64,000 nucleotides of DNA from Patescibacteria group bacterium (GCA_963169855.1 CAUJCN010000002.1:133508-197507); one strand, 5' to 3'; positions 4,948-50,583 are shown, numbered from the stretch's first letter. Translations and numbers: made by a program. Notes: a model not told the origin generated them from the letters alone.

Positions 4948-5383
4948 TGGTTCTCTACCTGGCGGCAGACAGGGACAAGCTCACCACTCGAAAGAGTTTG
5001 TATTGCAAGACATGGAGAAAGAAATTAAATATAACGATAATAAATTAGTTAATAAACAAAAATGTTTTACTTCTACATTTTCAAAACAAAAAAGGATCAA
5101 TACATTCAAGGTGTAACTAAGAACATGCAGACTACAATAATCGAGTACGCACTAGCCTACAAAACAGGAATAAAACTTCTGGATGTTCAAGCTTTCAAAC
5201 GAAAGAAAGATGCAGAAAGCGTTTTGCAAGAATTTCAAACTGCACCTACAGTTGTTATCGAGAGAATCGAAACTTCCAAAAAGATTTAAGTATCAATCAC
5301 CCCTTGATCCAATCAATTGGATCACTCACCTCGAGGGGAGAAAGTTCGCCACTGGCGAGCTGGAGTGGTGATACAATTTATAA

Positions 5384-16110: not shown

Positions 16111-16147
16111 CCTTAAATCCGTTTCCTTGATATAATTCCAAGTCTAC

Positions 16148-16218
16148 TCGGGGATCGTCTAGTGGTAGGACTACAGTTTCTGGAACTGTCGACTGGGGTT
16201 CGAATCCCTGTCCCCGAA
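16148..16218 (+). tRNA. tRNA-Gln (anticodon CUG), no encoded CCA
   Basis: The cloverleaf was folded by hand from the + strand. The acceptor stem UCGGGGA/UCCCCGA has a U1-A72 pair. The D-arm is GUCU/GGAC, the anticodon stem ACAGU/ACUGU with loop UUCUGGA, and the T-arm GGGG-UUCGAAU-CCC. Position 37 is G, which is unusual for Gln. Confidence 0.75.
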
Positions 16219-26466: not shown

Positions 26467-26934
26467 TTAGATTAAAGGAAGTTGCTCTATTTCAACTAAA
26501 TGTTCTTGAATATGTTCTATATCAACATTTATTGATTTGTGTGGAGTATCTTCTGCACTTGGACCGTACTGAGATTTCCAGTTATCCAACGATAAAGATT
26601 TATACTTGTTGAGTAAGTTGCCCCAAGAAGCGGTAAACTCATCGTAAATTTGATCCCATGACTTTCCAGAACGTTTTTCTACTTCATATTTATTAAAAGC
26701 ATCAAGCTGACTATCTTTTATCCAATCCATTGGCGGTTTTCCGGAAGTAAGCAGACCCAGCTGTTTAATAGTTAACAAATTCCAACCGCTGAAGTGTGAC
26801 ATAACGTCCTTAATTGTCCATTCACCGAATACAATCTCATTTCTTTTATTTTCTGGAAAGTTATTGACCGCAGAAGTCATTTCTTTTATTGCTGATTCCA
26901 ATTCAGTGATCAGCAGATTAACATCATTCAACAT
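26467..26934 (-). CDS. DinB/ClbS-like four-helix-bundle protein (tentative)
   Basis: A 155-aa helical protein with WTIKDVMSHFSGW; the family assignment is weak. Confidence 0.3.
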   Translation of the reverse strand: MLNDVNLLITELESAIKEMTSAVNNFPENKRNEIVFGEWTIKDVMSHFSGWNLLTIKQLGLLTSGKPPMDWIKDSQLDAFNKYEVEKRSGKSWDQIYDEFTASWGNLLNKYKSLSLDNWKSQYGPSAEDTPHKSINVDIEHIQEHLVEIEQLPLI

Positions 26935-27033
26935 AATAATTCTAAGTGATTAATAATAAAATTATACATATTGTTGATGGAAGTGTCGAACTATAAATGA
27001 GATGGCAACTTAGAACTTGTAAAAAATTCCGCA

Positions 27034-27537
27034 ATGAATATACAATGTAATATGGAACAGAAACCAGAATTTGAAACTGTTTTAAACCTTCTAGCTGATA
27101 TTGCTGGATACTTCGATGCTCTAAAAGTAAACTATCTCGTTTACGGCTCAATAGCTTATCTCATTTTTACAAAAGATTTGGGTCTTTACGTGAATGACAT
27201 AGATATTATCGTAAGCAAAGATGACTTTGACAGAATATCCGAAGTTTTCGCAAACAACGATCTTCCTTACAATTTAAATATCACTGAAAACGCAATTCAT
27301 GCTAATCACAAAACACTAACAGGTAATGATGGTAAGCCCTTCGATGTATCGTTAGATTCCTTCGAACACTATTTCGAAGGACGGGGAATAACATTCGAAG
27401 ATTTCACTTCTGTCAAAATTGACGGAGCTGAAGTCAAAGTACTACCAAAAAACAAACTGATTGAGCTTTATGAAGGTAAGAGCAAGGATCAGATTGTGGC
27501 GAGACAGCGATTAGAAACACTTATGAGGTCAGCCTAA
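27034..27537 (+). CDS. Nucleotidyltransferase of the ANT(2'')/Lnu (PF10706-like) family
   Basis: LKVNYLVYGSIAYLIFTKDLGLYVNDIDIIV resembles the Gly-rich hG(G/S) and DxD catalytic region of ANT(2'')-Ia and Lnu(A). The size (167 aa) also fits. Confidence 0.5.
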   Translation: MNIQCNMEQKPEFETVLNLLADIAGYFDALKVNYLVYGSIAYLIFTKDLGLYVNDIDIIVSKDDFDRISEVFANNDLPYNLNITENAIHANHKTLTGNDGKPFDVSLDSFEHYFEGRGITFEDFTSVKIDGAEVKVLPKNKLIELYEGKSKDQIVARQRLETLMRSA

Positions 27538-27930
27538 TTGATTTAATATCCTCAACTGCAAGCCAAGCAGCAGCACTTCCAAAACCTTTCTTATTAATTT
27601 CAAATGGACTTTCAGTTTTTGGATTAGTTAATCTGATGAGAGTTACAAATCTTTTTGGTTGATAAAATTCACTGTAAGTTCTATCAATCAAACAAATATC
27701 ATCTCCATAATCTCTTACAATTTTGTAGAACAAACTTTCATCTAAATTCTCAAACCGGATAACTTCGGAAACTTCTGCTGAAGCTGTAACTGGCTTTCCA
27801 GAATCTTTGAAGAATATTGTGTCGTCTTTACGTACCTTTCCCTAAGGAGTGATTTTGTTTACAGATCAACGTGATTCGATAACTTTTTCGCCAGAAAGTA
27901 TTTTGGAAATGTAGCCATATTTTTTATTCA
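27521..27930 (-). pseudogene. Disrupted ASCH-domain gene (in-frame stop and frameshift)
   Basis: The minus strand from ATG 27930 reads MNKKYGYISKILSGEKVIESRW*, an ASCH-like N-terminus. After a shift it continues …GKVRKDDTIFFKDSGKPVTASAEVSEVIRFENL…, joining the track ORF 27521..27733. Confidence 0.5.
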
Positions 27931-27949
27931 TTATGGCAACGTGATGCAT

Positions 27950-28570
27950 TTACTTCAGACTAGTTATTAATCCCGATTCTATCTCATCTTTGACTGTATC
28001 TTCGATAGTTTTATCTGTGAACTTAACTTCCCACAAATCATTCATTTTGAATATTAAAGTTCTGTGATGACCGTTATCTGATCTTACGAATTCTAAATCC
28101 CTTAAACCAAATTCTTTTTCAAGTTCATCAAAGTTAGGAACCCAAATTTCTGCATGGTCCAATCCAGATTTAAATGTCCCAACTTTTTCTGGCTTCGGCT
28201 CCATTATTTCTAAATAGAAAACACTACCAAAAGATGTAGTTTCAATTGCATTCTTAAGTCTAACTGTGGTGATCCTCCGATTATTCATCTGGATGTAATT
28301 TGCTGAGGCGAAAAAAGCAAGGTTATCATTTATAAAGTTTTCATACTCTGAAGTATCTGAAAGCTTTACGGCAATGTGATCTATTTTATAAGGTACTAAA
28401 TCTCGTAACCCTTTCACATCAAGATACTCTGTTAGAACACCTTCATATTCTTCAATTTTAGATACTAAAGTTTCTAATGTTAGTTTCTGCATATCATTTT
28501 GTGAATAAATATATTTCAAATAAACCTGTAGAATATGACGAGACTCGAACTCGTCTTTCGTAAAACTCAA
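27950..28570 (-). CDS. VOC (glyoxalase/bleomycin-resistance)-like protein (tentative)
   Basis: IDHIAVKLSD and LDHAEIWVPNFDE resemble VOC metal-binding strands. The first 12 codons overlap a tRNA T-arm-like fragment, so the true start may be Met27 (28492). Confidence 0.35.
   Translation of the reverse strand: MSFTKDEFESRHILQVYLKYIYSQNDMQKLTLETLVSKIEEYEGVLTEYLDVKGLRDLVPYKIDHIAVKLSDTSEYENFINDNLAFFASANYIQMNNRRITTVRLKNAIETTSFGSVFYLEIMEPKPEKVGTFKSGLDHAEIWVPNFDELEKEFGLRDLEFVRSDNGHHRTLIFKMNDLWEVKFTDKTIEDTVKDEIESGLITSLK
28538..28556 (-). repeat. Duplicate of the tRNA-Gly T-arm/3' end (GACGAGTTCGAGTCTCGTC) about 40 nt downstream of the intact tRNA
   Basis: A 16-nt stretch is identical to the T-arm of tRNA-Gly at 28603..28620 and no acceptor partner is found. 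It could be an att-site or recombination scar. Confidence 0.5.
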
Positions 28571-28595
28571 GAGAGACTTATGTTGAAATCTTAAA

Positions 28596-28668
28596 AGCGA
28601 TGGACGAGACTCGAACTCGCGACCTTTTCCTTGGCAAGGAAACGTTCTACCAATTGAACTACCATCGC
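28596..28668 (-). tRNA. tRNA-Gly (anticodon GCC), no encoded CCA
   Basis: The cloverleaf was folded by hand. The acceptor stem is GCGAUGG/CCAUCGC, the D-arm GUUC/GAAC, the anticodon stem UUUCC/GGAAA with loop UUGCCAA, and the T-arm GCGAG-UUCGAGU-CUCGU. Confidence 0.8.
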
Positions 28669-28690
28669 TTTTAAGATTCTAACTGTACTT

Positions 28691-28753
28691 CCTTGGCAAG
28701 GTGAGAAATGCCTCGGAGGCATTTCGGAATTCTACCAATTGAACTACATCTGC
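28691..28753 (-). pseudogene. Degenerate 5'-half copy of tRNA-Gly with an inserted GC hairpin
   Basis: The acceptor and D-arm GCAGATGTAGTTCAATTGGTAGAA show 22/24 identity to tRNA-Gly. An inserted hairpin GAAATGCC-TCCGA-GGCATTTC follows. An anticodon-arm-like CCTTGCCAAGGAAG follows that. There is no T-arm. Confidence 0.5.
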
Positions 28754-28843
28754 GTTTCAAGATTATATCAGATGAAAAGCATTATGGTAATCCCACCAAA
28801 GTGTTTCATCGTAATGAAACTCAAATAAGTGATACAATAAGTT

Positions 28844-29239
28844 ATGGCATACAACGAACTTACAAACGAAGAAAAAAGAGTAATCGAAGACAAGGGAACT
28901 GAACATCCTTTTACAGGAGAATACGATGATTTTTACGTGACAGGAACTTTTATTTGCCGTAGATGCAATCTCCCATTGTTTAGTTCCAAAGCAAAATTCA
29001 ATGCAAACTGCGGATGGCCAGCTTTTGATGATACATTTCCAAATGCGGTGAAAAGACTTACAGATACAGATGGGTACAGAACTGAAATTGAGTGCGCGAA
29101 TTGCGATGCTCATTTGGGACATGAATTTACTGGTGAAGGATTTACCAAAAAAGATACTCGTCATTGTGTAAATTCAGTTTCAATAAAATTTGTTCCAGAA
29201 GGCGAAACATTGCCGGAAGGTTTAACACAACAAACATGA
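28844..29239 (+). CDS. msrB: Peptide-methionine (R)-S-oxide reductase
   Basis: The zinc motifs CRRC and CANC are present, as is the GCGWPAF…HLGHEF catalytic motif. Confidence 0.85.
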   Translation: MAYNELTNEEKRVIEDKGTEHPFTGEYDDFYVTGTFICRRCNLPLFSSKAKFNANCGWPAFDDTFPNAVKRLTDTDGYRTEIECANCDAHLGHEFTGEGFTKKDTRHCVNSVSIKFVPEGETLPEGLTQQT

Positions 29240-46372: not shown

Positions 46373-47860
46373 ATGACTAAAACCAGCGATTATATGATTG
46401 AATTTACAAAAAAAACATTCCTAGAAAAAATTCCCGACTATGTGATTTCTATTGCCGAAACTCTACAGAAAGCCGGTTTTCAGTCTTATCTAGTAGGTGG
46501 CAGTATCAGAGATATCTTACTTGGAAAAACTCCCTTAGATTTCGACATTGCAACCAATGCGTACCCAGAAGATGTGCAGAAAATATTTCCTAAAAGTGTG
46601 CCTACAGGTGCTAAATTTGGGACTATAACTGTAATTGGGACATCCAATACTGGAGAAAACTTTGACGTTCAAATAACAACATACAGAAGTGAAGCTGACT
46701 ATTTTGGAGGCAGATGGCCAGCTAAGGTTGAGTTCGCAAGGACAATTGAAGAAGATCTATCTCGTAGAGACTTTACTATCAATGCTATTGCTCTAGATTT
46801 GCAGAACTTCGATAATGAGCAAATTGACGTGATGAATTTATTTGTAGATCCATTTAACGGATTAGAAGATTTAAAAGCTGGCGTGATTAAAGCTGTTAGA
46901 GAACCTATGGAAAGACTTACAGAAGATGGATTAAGGGCAGTTCGGGCTTGTAGATTAGCTTCTCAACTTGGATTTCAGATAGATGCAAATACCTTGAAAG
47001 CTATCAAAGAAACGAATCATGTTACTGCTCAAGTTTCTGTAGAAAGATTCAAAGATGAATTTCTAAAGATTTTGTACAAAAGTAGTAAACCTTCAGTTGG
47101 TTTAAATTTACTAAAAGAAACAGGAATTCTAAAACTATTTATTCCAGAGCTTTTAGAAGGAATAGATGTAGTCCAACCAGAGTTCCATACAGATGATGTT
47201 TTTACACACTCGCTTCAAGCCTGTGATATTGCTGAAGACAGAGTAAAAGTAGCAGCTTTACTGCATGATATTGGCAAATCTCGAACCAGAACAGAAGATG
47301 AAAAAGGAATCCATTTTTATGGACACGATGTTGTGGGAGCACGAATGACCGAAGAAATTTTGAAAAGGCTAAAATTTCCAAATGACGAAGTTGAGCGAAA
47401 CATTAGATTGGTTAGATGGCACATGTTCTACTACCCTTCAGCAGATTGGAGAAAATCTGATGATGAAATAAAAAAAGGAGAAGATATGGGATGGACGGAT
47501 GGTGCTATTAGAAGATTGATTATTAATGTCGGAGGTGAGGAGGGAATTGACGATTTACTCAGACTTCGCATCGCTGATGCTGCATCCAACCCAAAAAACG
47601 ATTTTGACCCAAAGGAGCTTGATGAATTAGCTTCCAGAGTAGCTTCCGTTAGAGCAAATGATATGGCTCTTAAAATCACTGATTTAGATATAAAAGGACA
47701 AGATCTTGTGGAGAATTTTGGATTACAACCAGGTCAAAAGTTGGGTGAAACTCTCAAGTTCTTACTCGAGAAGGTTTTAGACGATCCAGCACTGAATAAA
47801 AAATTAGATTTATTAAGATTAGCAAAGAGCTTTTTAGATAGTCACCAAAGTTCCGTTTAG
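46373..47860 (+). CDS. cca: CCA-adding tRNA nucleotidyltransferase (class II NTase head plus HD domain)
   Basis: GGSIRDILLGKTPLDFDIAT is the polymerase-beta-like head. HTDDVFTHSL…LLHDIGK is the HD motif. Confidence 0.8.
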   Translation: MTKTSDYMIEFTKKTFLEKIPDYVISIAETLQKAGFQSYLVGGSIRDILLGKTPLDFDIATNAYPEDVQKIFPKSVPTGAKFGTITVIGTSNTGENFDVQITTYRSEADYFGGRWPAKVEFARTIEEDLSRRDFTINAIALDLQNFDNEQIDVMNLFVDPFNGLEDLKAGVIKAVREPMERLTEDGLRAVRACRLASQLGFQIDANTLKAIKETNHVTAQVSVERFKDEFLKILYKSSKPSVGLNLLKETGILKLFIPELLEGIDVVQPEFHTDDVFTHSLQACDIAEDRVKVAALLHDIGKSRTRTEDEKGIHFYGHDVVGARMTEEILKRLKFPNDEVERNIRLVRWHMFYYPSADWRKSDDEIKKGEDMGWTDGAIRRLIINVGGEEGIDDLLRLRIADAASNPKNDFDPKELDELASRVASVRANDMALKITDLDIKGQDLVENFGLQPGQKLGETLKFLLEKVLDDPALNKKLDLLRLAKSFLDSHQSSV

Positions 47861-49706: not shown

Positions 49707-49778
49707 AGGTAACGGCGGGATTCGAACCCGCGGATAAGAGTTTTGCAGACTCTCGCCTTACCACTTGGCCACGTCACC
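49707..49778 (-). tRNA. tRNA-Cys (anticodon GCA), no encoded CCA
   Basis: The cloverleaf was folded by hand. The acceptor stem GGUGACG/CGUUACC has one G-U pair. The D-stem is 3 bp (GCC/GGC), the anticodon stem AGAGU/ACUCU with loop CUGCAAA, and the T-arm GCGGG-UUCGAAU-CCCGC. Confidence 0.8.
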
Positions 49779-49794
49779 ATTTATTTCTTTTTCT

Positions 49795-49860
49795 TTTGCA
49801 GACTCTAGCCTAGACTTTATCCTTCGTAGCGTAGCGAAGGGGGAACTTGGCCACGTCACC
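49795..49860 (-). pseudogene. Degenerate 5'-half copy of tRNA-Cys with an inserted GC hairpin
   Basis: The first 16 nt (GGTGACGTGGCCAAGT) are identical to tRNA-Cys. An inserted hairpin CCTTCG-CTACGCTA-CGAAGG follows. Then AGAGTCTGCAAAA is identical to the anticodon 5' stem and loop. The 3' half is missing. Confidence 0.5.
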
Positions 49861-49926
49861 GTTTAGAAATTTTCTTTTCGATTATACCTTTTCAAGGTGA
49901 AAAATCCTACCCCAACTGAAGAATCA

Positions 49927-50583
49927 TTACTTATCCATTACCCAAAGGAAACCTTCATTTGTAATAAACACAGTATATTCATGTGGCTGACTTGTAATAG
50001 GTTGTCCTTCTGAACTGATTTGCGTTGAGTCAACTATACCTCGTACAATCCATCCCCAGAAACCATTATCATTTTGATAAAATTCAAAAACTCTTTGCCA
50101 ATCCGAAATGCCTCCATTTATATCCCAAGACGAGAAAGCTTCATCAGGTCTGTTTTCTTCAGCTTCGTTATTAAAATTGTATCTTCCATAAACCTGACCC
50201 AGTTTGAAGATTGTCTTAAAGTTAACAAAAATAAGTTCATTTCTAAATTTGATGATTGGGCCAGAAAGATGCACAGTATCTCCATACACTTTAAAGCTGT
50301 ATTCTTCTAACTTTGCCTCCTCTGGTGTGCTTCCAGCACCAAAAAGCTGACCTAGTGCAGTATTTTCTGATTTCTTTATTTTGAGATAAACATCTGCATA
50401 CGTTCCATTAGAATCAACTTTTCTCTCCGAAACCGTTACTTTTGCTACCTCTTCTCTTTGAGTAAATACAGAATATGTCCTTAATAGCAACGCAGTATAG
50501 CCTCCAACTGTTATAATTAGACAGATTACTAGGAATAAGCAGAATAACAAAAGGGTTGCAGTTACTTTTACAATGCTTCTCAT
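49927..50583 (-). CDS. Hypothetical protein with N-terminal signal anchor
   Basis: The N-terminus is hydrophobic (VTATLLLFCLFLVICLIITV), so the protein is probably exported. Confidence 0.4.
   Translation of the reverse strand: MRSIVKVTATLLLFCLFLVICLIITVGGYTALLLRTYSVFTQREEVAKVTVSERKVDSNGTYADVYLKIKKSENTALGQLFGAGSTPEEAKLEEYSFKVYGDTVHLSGPIIKFRNELIFVNFKTIFKLGQVYGRYNFNNEAEENRPDEAFSSWDINGGISDWQRVFEFYQNDNGFWGWIVRGIVDSTQISSEGQPITSQPHEYTVFITNEGFLWVMDK

Follow-up and report, generated by a model that had tools for sequence, protein, structure and literature searches.

A palindrome-split 5′ partial copy of tRNA-Cys directly ahead of the intact gene in a Patescibacteria genome, and similar lesions at other tRNA loci

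We analyzed 64,000 nucleotides (nt) of DNA from a Patescibacteria group bacterium (GCA_963169855.1, CAUJCN010000002.1:133508–197507; this whole 64-kb stretch is referred to below as the window) and, in particular, a block of 82 nt that lies immediately 5′ of the tRNA-Cys(GCA) gene and contains a partial copy of that gene split by a palindrome. The window has a guanine–cytosine (GC) content of ~35%, carries housekeeping genes on both strands and contains three tRNA genes, for glutamine, glycine and cysteine. The nearest genomes are metagenome-assembled Patescibacteria labelled 'uncultured Candidatus Saccharibacteria', with Dojkabacteria further off; phage matches are limited to the tRNA itself, and we rejected the idea that the window is phage DNA. 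Read 5′ to 3′ on the minus strand, the tRNA-Cys locus comprises the following features.

49881–49886, minus strand: TATAAT, the −10 box of the tRNA-Cys promoter, read from the sequence; homologous to the promoter that stands directly before tRNA-Cys in sister species
49861–49880, minus strand: native 5′ leader, 20 nt, CGAAAAGAAAATTTCTAAAC; its first 13 nt align with the leader TCAAAGGAAAATT of sister species L005, which there abuts the tRNA
49845–49860, minus strand: block 1 of the pseudo-copy, GGTGACGTGGCCAAGT, corresponding to tRNA-Cys nt 1–16 (blastn-short 16/16, E 8e-4 against the whole window)
49812–49844, minus strand: 33-nt insert, TCCCCCTTCGCTACGCTACGAAGGATAAAGTCT, in place of D-loop nt 17–20 GGTA (sequence reading)
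49794–49811, minus strand: block 2 of the pseudo-copy, AGGCTAGAGTCTGCAAAA (AGGCtAGAGTCTGCAAAA), corresponding to tRNA-Cys nt 21–38 (blastn-short 17/18, E 0.012 against the whole window)
49779–49793, minus strand: A-rich spacer, 15 nt, GAAAAAGAAATAAAT (by eye)
49707–49778, minus strand: intact tRNA-Cys(GCA), CCA not encoded (ARAGORN; RF00005, 68.8 bits)

Block 1 covers the 5′ strand of the acceptor stem, nt 8–9, the 5′ strand of the D-stem and the start of the D-loop, and on base composition would be expected to occur by chance within 200 offsets with a probability of ~7e-9. The insert that follows carries perfect 6-bp arms, CCTTCG (49840–49835) and CGAAGG (49826–49821), around an 8-nt loop, CTACGCTA, and in the minimum free energy (MFE) fold its predicted local helix prolongs the D-stem. 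Block 2 consists of the 3′ strand of the D-stem (AGGC), the 5′ strand of the anticodon stem and the entire anticodon loop. The copy ends at the 3′ end of that loop and is without the 3′ strand of the anticodon stem, the T-arm and the 3′ strand of the acceptor stem. The occurrence of the two blocks, in order and directly 5′ of tRNA-Cys, is far beyond chance. A preliminary description of the locus had reported the exact repeat of nt 1–16, which blastn-short recovers in full. The hairpin insertion that it gave as 36 nt is likewise present, although the insert measures 33 nt and the exact blocks stand 38 nt apart; similarly, its exact 13-nt copy of the anticodon region is real, but lies within the longer 17/18 match that keeps AGGC of the D-stem. 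RF00005, even at E ≤ 10, and ARAGORN scored nothing at 49779–49860, recognized only 49707–49778 and called no intron; as had been supposed, the piece thus lies outside any canonical or intron-containing tRNA. No other Rfam family matched the piece beyond noise.

The same layout is found in assemblies of five runs from two studies. Four of the contigs (L001–L004) were retrieved via a flanking 218-amino-acid protein, and one of these, L004, stops inside the tRNA, beyond the pseudo-copy. The fifth (L098, run ERR10655384) is tied to the tRNA-Cys locus only by BLAST with the hairpin, and ARAGORN finds no tRNA there.

The two closest species have the locus but not the block. We recovered these sister species (L005 and L006) through the downstream glycosyltransferase, which is 87% and 80% identical, respectively, to that of the window. 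Both retain the genes on either side, the promoter (which reads CTTGAAGGTATAAT in L005) and a near-identical tRNA-Cys, differing from that of the window by one base in the variable loop; the promoter stands 12–13 nt from tRNA-Cys and no partial copy is present. The 3′ flank of the window tRNA-Cys can be aligned with L005, and synteny is conserved on either side. Because the sister species lack the block and their promoter abuts the tRNA, the 82 nt are a recent gain in the lineage of the window and are dispensable for expression of tRNA-Cys. The close match of the tRNA-derived blocks to the gene (16/16 and 17/18) likewise indicates that they are young, and the absence of the whole piece from both species argues, as the preliminary description had anticipated, against a plain tandem duplication common to relatives.

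The arrangement of the block relative to the promoter suggests how it might be expressed. The context of the −10 box, CTTGAA..GGTATAAT, is kept in L005, and a consensus promoter scan of the locus found neither a match to a −35 element nor a second promoter nearer the tRNA. Since the promoters lie upstream at both the tRNA-Cys locus and the tRNA-Gly locus described below, with none between the Cys piece and its tRNA, transcription would include the pieces at both loci as long 5′ leaders. No terminator-like site (a hairpin followed by a U-tract) is present at either locus, and no Rfam model of a known cis-regulatory leader (T-box, riboswitch or attenuator) matched either locus beyond noise. The Cys piece is probably a mere long 5′ leader that is removed by RNase P. 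When the Cys precursor is folded to its MFE structure, the sole acceptor 3′ strand is captured by the acceptor 5′ strand of the upstream copy, which would, if anything, be disadvantageous. Taken by itself, the Cys piece is no more stable than shuffled sequences (z-score −1.45). The Gly piece folds better than its shuffles (z-score −3.9), because of a perfect 10-bp palindrome.

As a separate observation on tRNA promoters and ends, an extended −10 element, TGnTATAAT, without a clear −35 element, lies 8–22 nt ahead of most tRNA genes (window 16125–16133, 28762–28770 and 49881–49889; also L011 and L029), the promoter of the window tRNA-Cys being the exception and reading GGTATAAT. CCA is not encoded by the tRNA genes of the window, L011 and L029 genomes, and a gene for a CCA-adding enzyme lies at 46373–47860.

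Sequence between the two tRNA-Cys copies bears on how the block arose. The 15-nt spacer resembles the native leader (GAAAA.GAAA..TAAAY), and by eye both copies have TAAAY in front of them. This likeness is suggestive of a tandem duplication of the leader together with nt 1–38, joined at an AAAA microhomology.

A related arrangement is found at the tRNA-Gly locus of the window, the features of which are as follows.

28688–28753, minus strand: 5′ pseudo-piece of tRNA-Gly, GCAGATG TA GTTCAATTGGTAGAA, palindrome, TCTCA CCTTGCCAAGGAAG (BLAST and sequence reading)
28596–28668, minus strand: intact tRNA-Gly(GCC) (ARAGORN and Rfam)
28531–28555, minus strand: displaced T-arm copy, GACGAGTTCGAGTCTCGTC, then ATATTC (an exact 17-mer, ~40–42 nt 3′ of the functional tRNA-Gly)

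The order at this locus is promoter, pseudo-piece, 19-nt spacer, functional gene, 40-nt spacer and T-arm copy, with the promoter (TTACCA-17-TATAAT, with an upstream TG, that is TGnTATAAT) ending 8 nt ahead of the pseudo-piece. Within the pseudo-piece, nt 8–25 are an exact copy, and the insert is 28 nt long with a perfect palindrome, GAAATGCCTC-C-GAGGCATTTC (28725–28705). The preliminary description had the two loci sharing one exact layout, from which the T-arm was missing. The likeness is a rough one: the Gly hairpin stands past the D-arm, after nt 24 and in place of nt 25–29, and the copy runs on via the anticodon stem to nt 43. The T-arm is indeed missing from the Cys copy, but at the Gly locus a copy of it is displaced to the 3′ side of the functional gene, and this is the only orphan T-arm found in the window.

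The Gly pieces of the window appear to be older than the Cys block. The acceptor sequence (GCAGATG) and the anticodon-stem end (GGAAG) of the pseudo-piece are the states found in the functional genes of two relatives, L011 and L012, which we retrieved via their MsrB genes. The functional tRNA-Gly of the window differs from these in two stems, in each case on both strands (GCGATGG/CCATCGC and TTTCC/GGAAA), and the tail of the T-arm remnant, CATATTC, is nearer to the relatives' CATCTGC than to CCATCGC of the window gene. The 5′ piece and the T-arm remnant are thus probably, to judge from these sequences, the two ends of one older resident tRNA-Gly between which the present gene now lies; the trailer of the remnant gave no convincing alignment with the trailers of L011 and L012. 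In both relatives a copy running from nt 8 onward lies 3′ of the functional tRNA-Gly and carries a hairpin, TTACGAATGCACAACGTGCATTCTCA, at the same site as in the window piece. The hairpins of all three species have the stem base and flanks in common (TT.CGAA.TGC / GCATT.CTCA), and because the insertion site, base and flanks are shared we conclude that the hairpin-bearing Gly copy predates the split of the three species. The copy in L012 carries disruptive mutations; its D-loop holds a further palindrome of 20 nt, and additional GC-rich palindromes separate its T-arm from the acceptor 3′ strand. L011 has an extra 5′ piece, absent from L012, between the promoter and the gene, consisting of nt 1–12, two tandem palindromes (TCACTC-GGA-GAGTGA and TCACCC-TCT-GGGTGA), nt 13–20 and TTTAAT.

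Comparison of L011 with L012 (L011 5000–10900) reveals a recombination mosaic in which identity swings from 55 to 99% over a few hundred bases, and local conservation between the two can therefore not be read as constraint. The tRNA-Gly block is 93–99% identical between them and yet includes three indels of this kind, which argues that the insertion and duplication events are fast relative to point substitution. Attempts to find further orthologous Gly loci via the MsrB and Ser-hydrolase neighbours showed that the synteny of tRNA-Gly is not kept beyond L011 and L012, and a pattern scan of the Joint Genome Institute (JGI) metagenomes for the hairpin-bearing Gly piece gave no hits.

Several further observations concern the tRNA-Gly locus. 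In the functional tRNA-Gly, leader and trailer are complementary and prolong the acceptor stem to about 16–19 bp (window 28587–28680; L012 3222–3317). Leader and trailer read ATCTTAAAA/TTTTAAGAT in the window but TGTGTAAAAA/TTTTTACACA in L012. Pairing is thus maintained although the letters differ, suggesting that the precursor has a processing stem; tRNA-Cys has no comparable stem. In addition, the gene content from the glycosyltransferase/deformylase block to MsrB is wholly different in the window (26467–28844) and in L011 (4483–9998) and L012 (154–4000). In the window this variable stretch holds a nucleotidyltransferase-like open reading frame (ORF) and a YecM-like ORF; in the relatives it holds NYN, DUF1706 and DUF2200 genes and a Ser-hydrolase ~70% identical to actinobacterial proteins. 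Because the flanking gene content differs so completely, we take the tRNA-Gly locus to lie at a hot spot of gene flux.

A lesion of this type was also found on a further contig. This metagenomic contig, with 48% GC and unassigned affiliation (L076; minus strand, 69–245), carries tRNA-Gln(CTG), after which come 15 nt, nt 14–21, two palindromes within the D-loop that together span 32 nt (GTCGCC-TCTTC-GGCGAC and CCCTCC-GATGA-GGAGGG) and nt 22–72 copied exactly, an arrangement that is the mirror image of that in the window. Among the distinct tRNA loci that could be read, five have partial copies, amounting to six pieces that each hold one or more perfect palindromes (window Cys, window Gly, L011 Gly with two pieces, L012 Gly and L076 Gln), and seven do not (window Gln, L005 Cys, L006 Cys, L029 Ser, L061 Thr, L102 Glu and L103 Gln). 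The finding of similar lesions independently at other tRNA loci and in other genomes supports the argument, made in the preliminary description, for a specific process, which we consider likely.

The palindromes are inserted after nt 12, 16, 17, 21 and 24, that is in or beside the D-arm, and after nt 65. Perfect hairpins of at least 6 bp with at least 4 G/C pairs are scarce in these genomes of 35% GC. The window contains 17, six of them within one anomalous 1.8-kb region; two of the 16–17 GC-rich hairpins lie in the ~170 nt of 5′ pseudo-pieces, which make up 0.27% of the sequence. In L012, three of the four GC-rich hairpins outside tRNA genes lie in the 160-nt pseudo-copy. This concentration indicates that the palindromes are tied to pseudo-tRNA sequence specifically and not to intergenic DNA generally. 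All of the stems are perfect Watson–Crick helices with no G–U pairs and with loops of 1–8 nt, as is typical of palindromes that arise at the DNA level, the second arm being copied from the first, and not of selected RNA hairpins.

In the DNA searched, the palindromes show no common family sequence. The longest word common to the two window inserts is 4 nt. A CTCCGA(G) core occurs at or near the top of the stem in three of seven inserts, on either strand (window 28705–28725; L011 8878–8892; L076 121–137), and two L012 inserts have the 9-mer CCTGCCTGT in common, but scattered 7–9-mers are too short to define a family. No other copies of the hairpins were found in ~95 kb of the same genome (the window plus ~30 kb, the latter containing no tRNA), in ~650 kb of related loci or in IMG/VR. 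By eye, none of the six insertion sites has a target-site duplication or a consistent flanking direct repeat, and no templating of the palindromes from nearby DNA was found. The idea that a mobile hairpin element had entered both loci thus finds no support in these comparisons, which give unlike hairpins, differing positions, no target-site duplications and no further copies. The proposed regeneration of an intact copy after the insertion would leave the same picture as a duplication followed by insertion of the palindrome.

Four matches to the hairpins were considered separately. An exact 14-mer of the Gly insert, TCCGAAATGCCTCC, recurs at 50102–50115 (plus strand) inside an ORF at 49927–50583 (minus strand; E 0.004–0.03), a short way 5′ of the tRNA-Cys locus; it is the sole off-site match of any insert that we retained, and is probably due to chance. 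Three further candidates were rejected. The L012 D-loop hairpin matches window 4958–4974 at 16 of 17 positions, and an L076 hairpin has a match in L090, but both matches are unconvincing as hairpins and lie in unrelated contexts; a second CCTTCG...CGAAGG palindrome, at 27358–27381, lies inside plausible coding sequence and is probably there by chance.

On balance, the block 49860–49779 is probably a young, lineage-specific, non-coding and non-functional scar, left by micro-scale duplication and palindrome insertion in a quick turnover of sequence at tRNA loci. A tandem duplication of the promoter-proximal part of tRNA-Cys, comprising a few to ~19 nt of leader and nt 1–38, would have been joined, probably at the AAAA microhomology, and the D-loop of the upstream copy would then have been replaced by the 33-nt insert with its perfect GC-rich palindrome. 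The remnant would be transcribed as a 5′ leader of ~90–100 nt of the tRNA-Cys precursor, from which a cut by RNase P at the true 5′ end would remove it; it would serve no function itself and may interfere slightly with folding. The block would be one instance of a fast-turnover process in this Patescibacteria lineage that acts mainly in or beside the D-arm. Duplication and palindrome might arise in one event, for example through serial template switching at a heavily transcribed gene. Alternatively, uninterrupted direct repeats might soon be lost by slippage, so that copies broken by an insert would persist longer. What the sequences show directly is the anatomy of the block, its absence from the sister species, the recurrence of such lesions and the enrichment of palindromes; transcription and processing, the sequence of events and the want of a function are deduced.

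Several observations weigh against this interpretation. A palindrome is present in six of six partial copies, which demands either a coupled mechanism or survivorship, and the palindromes are not templated from nearby DNA. The Gly hairpin occurs in three species with both upper-stem arms changed and pairing still perfect, which could mean selection for RNA or DNA structure. The likeness of spacer to leader is one between low-complexity A-rich sequences. Finally, the sample amounts to ~12% of the source genome plus a few tRNA loci of relatives.

The pieces could instead be footprints of small mobile or integrative DNA that targets tRNA genes and was later reduced to a palindromic remnant, an explanation that we regard as unlikely. 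Such DNA might have been an element that brought part of the tRNA with it, or a miniature palindromic element preferring the D-arm, whose integration duplicated part of the gene. Partial tRNA genes in prokaryotes are known as att-site duplications from integrated mobile elements, and element integration is their documented main source (van der Gulik et al. 2023, PMC9897764). Like such att-site copies, the pieces described here combine a complete tRNA with a near-identical partial copy on the same strand that is scored poorly or not at all by tRNA finders, and L076, with its complete gene followed by a 3′ partial copy in the classic manner, fits best. The Cys duplication ends at nt 38, at the 3′ edge of the anticodon loop, which Williams reportedly described in 2002 as a classic crossover sublocation of tRNA-targeting integrases, and the spacer is similar but not identical to the native leader, as if it came from the locus of another strain. 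The tRNA-Gly locus, for its part, lies at a spot of variable gene content, and the window gene, with an acceptor (GCGATGG) different from that of the relatives and kept by the pseudo-piece (GCAGATG), looks foreign or strongly diverged; two L012 palindromes, moreover, share CCTGCCTGT.

However, no integrase, transposase or element body is present, no mobile-element gene was found among the 29 window ORFs scanned, and the housekeeping neighbours of tRNA-Cys remain syntenic with L005 on both sides. Known integrations restore the 3′ part of the tRNA, with the copies kilobases apart (PMC9897764). At the window loci the upstream Cys and Gly pieces are 5′ parts, only 15 nt separating the Cys copies, whereas the pieces downstream of the gene in L076 and in L011 and L012 are of the 3′ type, and no element with a recombinase accompanies the Cys copies. 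Furthermore, the palindrome lies inside the partial copy, splitting it, and not at the junction of the duplication, the insertion points vary (nt 12, 16, 17, 21, 24 and 65), target-site duplications are absent and the hairpins recur nowhere that we searched.

Alternatively, the pieces might function as structured 5′ leaders that modulate the folding, processing or yield of the tRNA, or as a tRNA-derived small RNA or decoy after release by RNase P; we consider this improbable. At both window loci the piece lies between promoter and tRNA, and the capture of the acceptor 3′ strand in the Cys MFE fold could influence maturation. The Gly hairpin occupies the same site in three species with its pairing kept, in a piece that folds with a z-score of −3.9. 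Against this, neither of the two closest species has the Cys piece, and the z-score of the piece is only −1.45; for these reasons we do not uphold the regulatory RNA that had been proposed at the Cys locus. The Gly element shifts in position, preceding the functional gene in the window but following it in L011 and L012; the L012 copy has disruptive mutations and extra inserts, and identity between L011 and L012 reflects a recombination mosaic, not constraint. In addition, there is no Rfam match, and the stems have tiny loops and are without G–U pairs. A functional leader RNA is thus possible for the older Gly element and unsupported for Cys.

We find it very improbable that the locus encodes an intron-containing, split or permuted tRNA that would mature by splicing out the hairpin or the 82-nt block. 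Deletion of any 82-nt register between the 16-nt repeats would restore the tRNA. Short D-arm introns are found in archaea and algae, and an extra 5′ half lies beside a permuted tRNA-Cys(GCA) in Ostreococcus lucimarinus, among the tandem-duplication intermediates proposed for permuted and split tRNAs (Soma 2014, PMC3978253). The pieces resemble such intermediates in that an additional half accompanies a tRNA gene of like identity and one copy has been partly lost following local duplication, and the window tRNA-Gly is nested between older remnants. Unlike permuted and split tRNAs, which involve the archaeal or eukaryotic splicing endonuclease, a bulge–helix–bulge (BHB) motif and a functional product, they lie in a bacterium, beside a complete gene that works, and look dead. 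The splicing endonuclease is not known from bacteria, and no match to a splicing endonuclease or ligase was found among the window ORFs scanned. A complete, high-scoring tRNA lies directly downstream, that gene is the only 3′ partner available to the upstream piece, and no BHB geometry was seen by eye in the loops on either side of the central helix in one MFE fold, no dedicated motif search having been run. That the block is an assembly artefact of a repeat-containing region, as the end of one contig (L004) inside the repeated tRNA segment might suggest, has almost no probability, given that it is identical in five assemblies from two studies (one of them, L098, linked by hairpin BLAST only) and that analogous but different structures occur in other genomes.

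Two parts of the window stand apart from the loci discussed above. The first is the remaining tRNA gene.

16148–16218, plus strand: tRNA-Gln(CTG) (ARAGORN and Rfam)

The second is an island of ~570 bp (around 1200–1770, within the region 850–1900) with ~60% GC in a genome of 35% GC. Its 151-amino-acid ORF (1309–1764) matches nothing in Pfam and has a signal peptide resembling that of lipoproteins, MKKIAMIIMFGVIALASVGC. Three GC-rich perfect hairpins (858–882, 912–937 and 1037–1054) lie 5′ of this ORF, a long imperfect hairpin (about 1828–1890) lies 3′ of it, and a DUF559/Vsr-like endonuclease ORF (497–895) adjoins the island. The presence of the island on a separate Logan contig (L097) shows that it is not chimeric, and it has the look of a small insertion of foreign DNA.

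Other known systems resemble the scar proposed here in part. Repetitive extragenic palindromic (REP) elements and the GC clusters of yeast mitochondria are small palindromic mobile repeats. Rickettsia palindromic elements (RPEs) occur inside tmRNA and RNase P RNA genes (Delihas 2008, PMC2229807). As in all three, the palindromes described here are short, GC-rich against an AT-rich genome, situated in structured-RNA genes and sporadic among relatives; unlike the members of such multi-copy families, of which RPEs are at least 100 nt, they are unique apart from short common words, 20–39 nt long and found only in non-functional tRNA copies. Bacterial rRNA intervening sequences lie in functional genes and are excised by RNase III. 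They share with the present inserts an extended helix that replaces a native terminal loop (here the D-loop) and a patchy distribution among close relatives, but the host here is a truncated, non-functional pseudo-copy. At tyrT of E. coli, repeats 3′ of tRNA-Tyr hold the last 19 nt of the tRNA. That locus, too, has local direct repeats with a tRNA fragment that are co-transcribed with the gene; the fragment there is a 3′ one, the repeats are 178 bp long and there is no palindromic insert. None of the systems compared here joins a promoter-proximal 5′ half-copy, a unique perfect palindrome in the D-arm, the absence of an element and recurrence across loci, and searches of the literature gave no report of such a pattern in Patescibacteria.

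The recurrence of these events, together with their speed, indicates that the lineage has an unusually active source of them. More speculatively, and as a reading that we consider unlikely, the lineage might possess an undescribed active process, be it a micro-element or a repair or template-switch pathway, that in one event seeds unique, perfect GC-rich palindromes in the region of the D-arm and duplicates part of the gene, giving rise to nested and half-tRNA architectures in bacteria; or the hairpin-bearing Gly piece common to three species might represent a new class of tRNA-derived structured leader RNA. Partial tRNA genes in prokaryotes are usually read as signposts of mobile elements, whereas those described here are on a scale of less than 100 nt, lie on the 5′ side at the window loci, come with no element and always contain a palindrome. 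Should the recurrence fail to hold, the window would contain just a pair of decaying duplicates. If it holds genome-wide, however, it would reveal that tRNA genes in the streamlined genomes of the candidate phyla radiation are subject to a process of their own, whether mutational or mobile, it would carry a warning for annotation, since such loci give unusually long, structured pre-tRNA leaders, and bacteria would then offer natural instances of the intermediates, duplicated and nested, that have been proposed for split and permuted tRNA genes.

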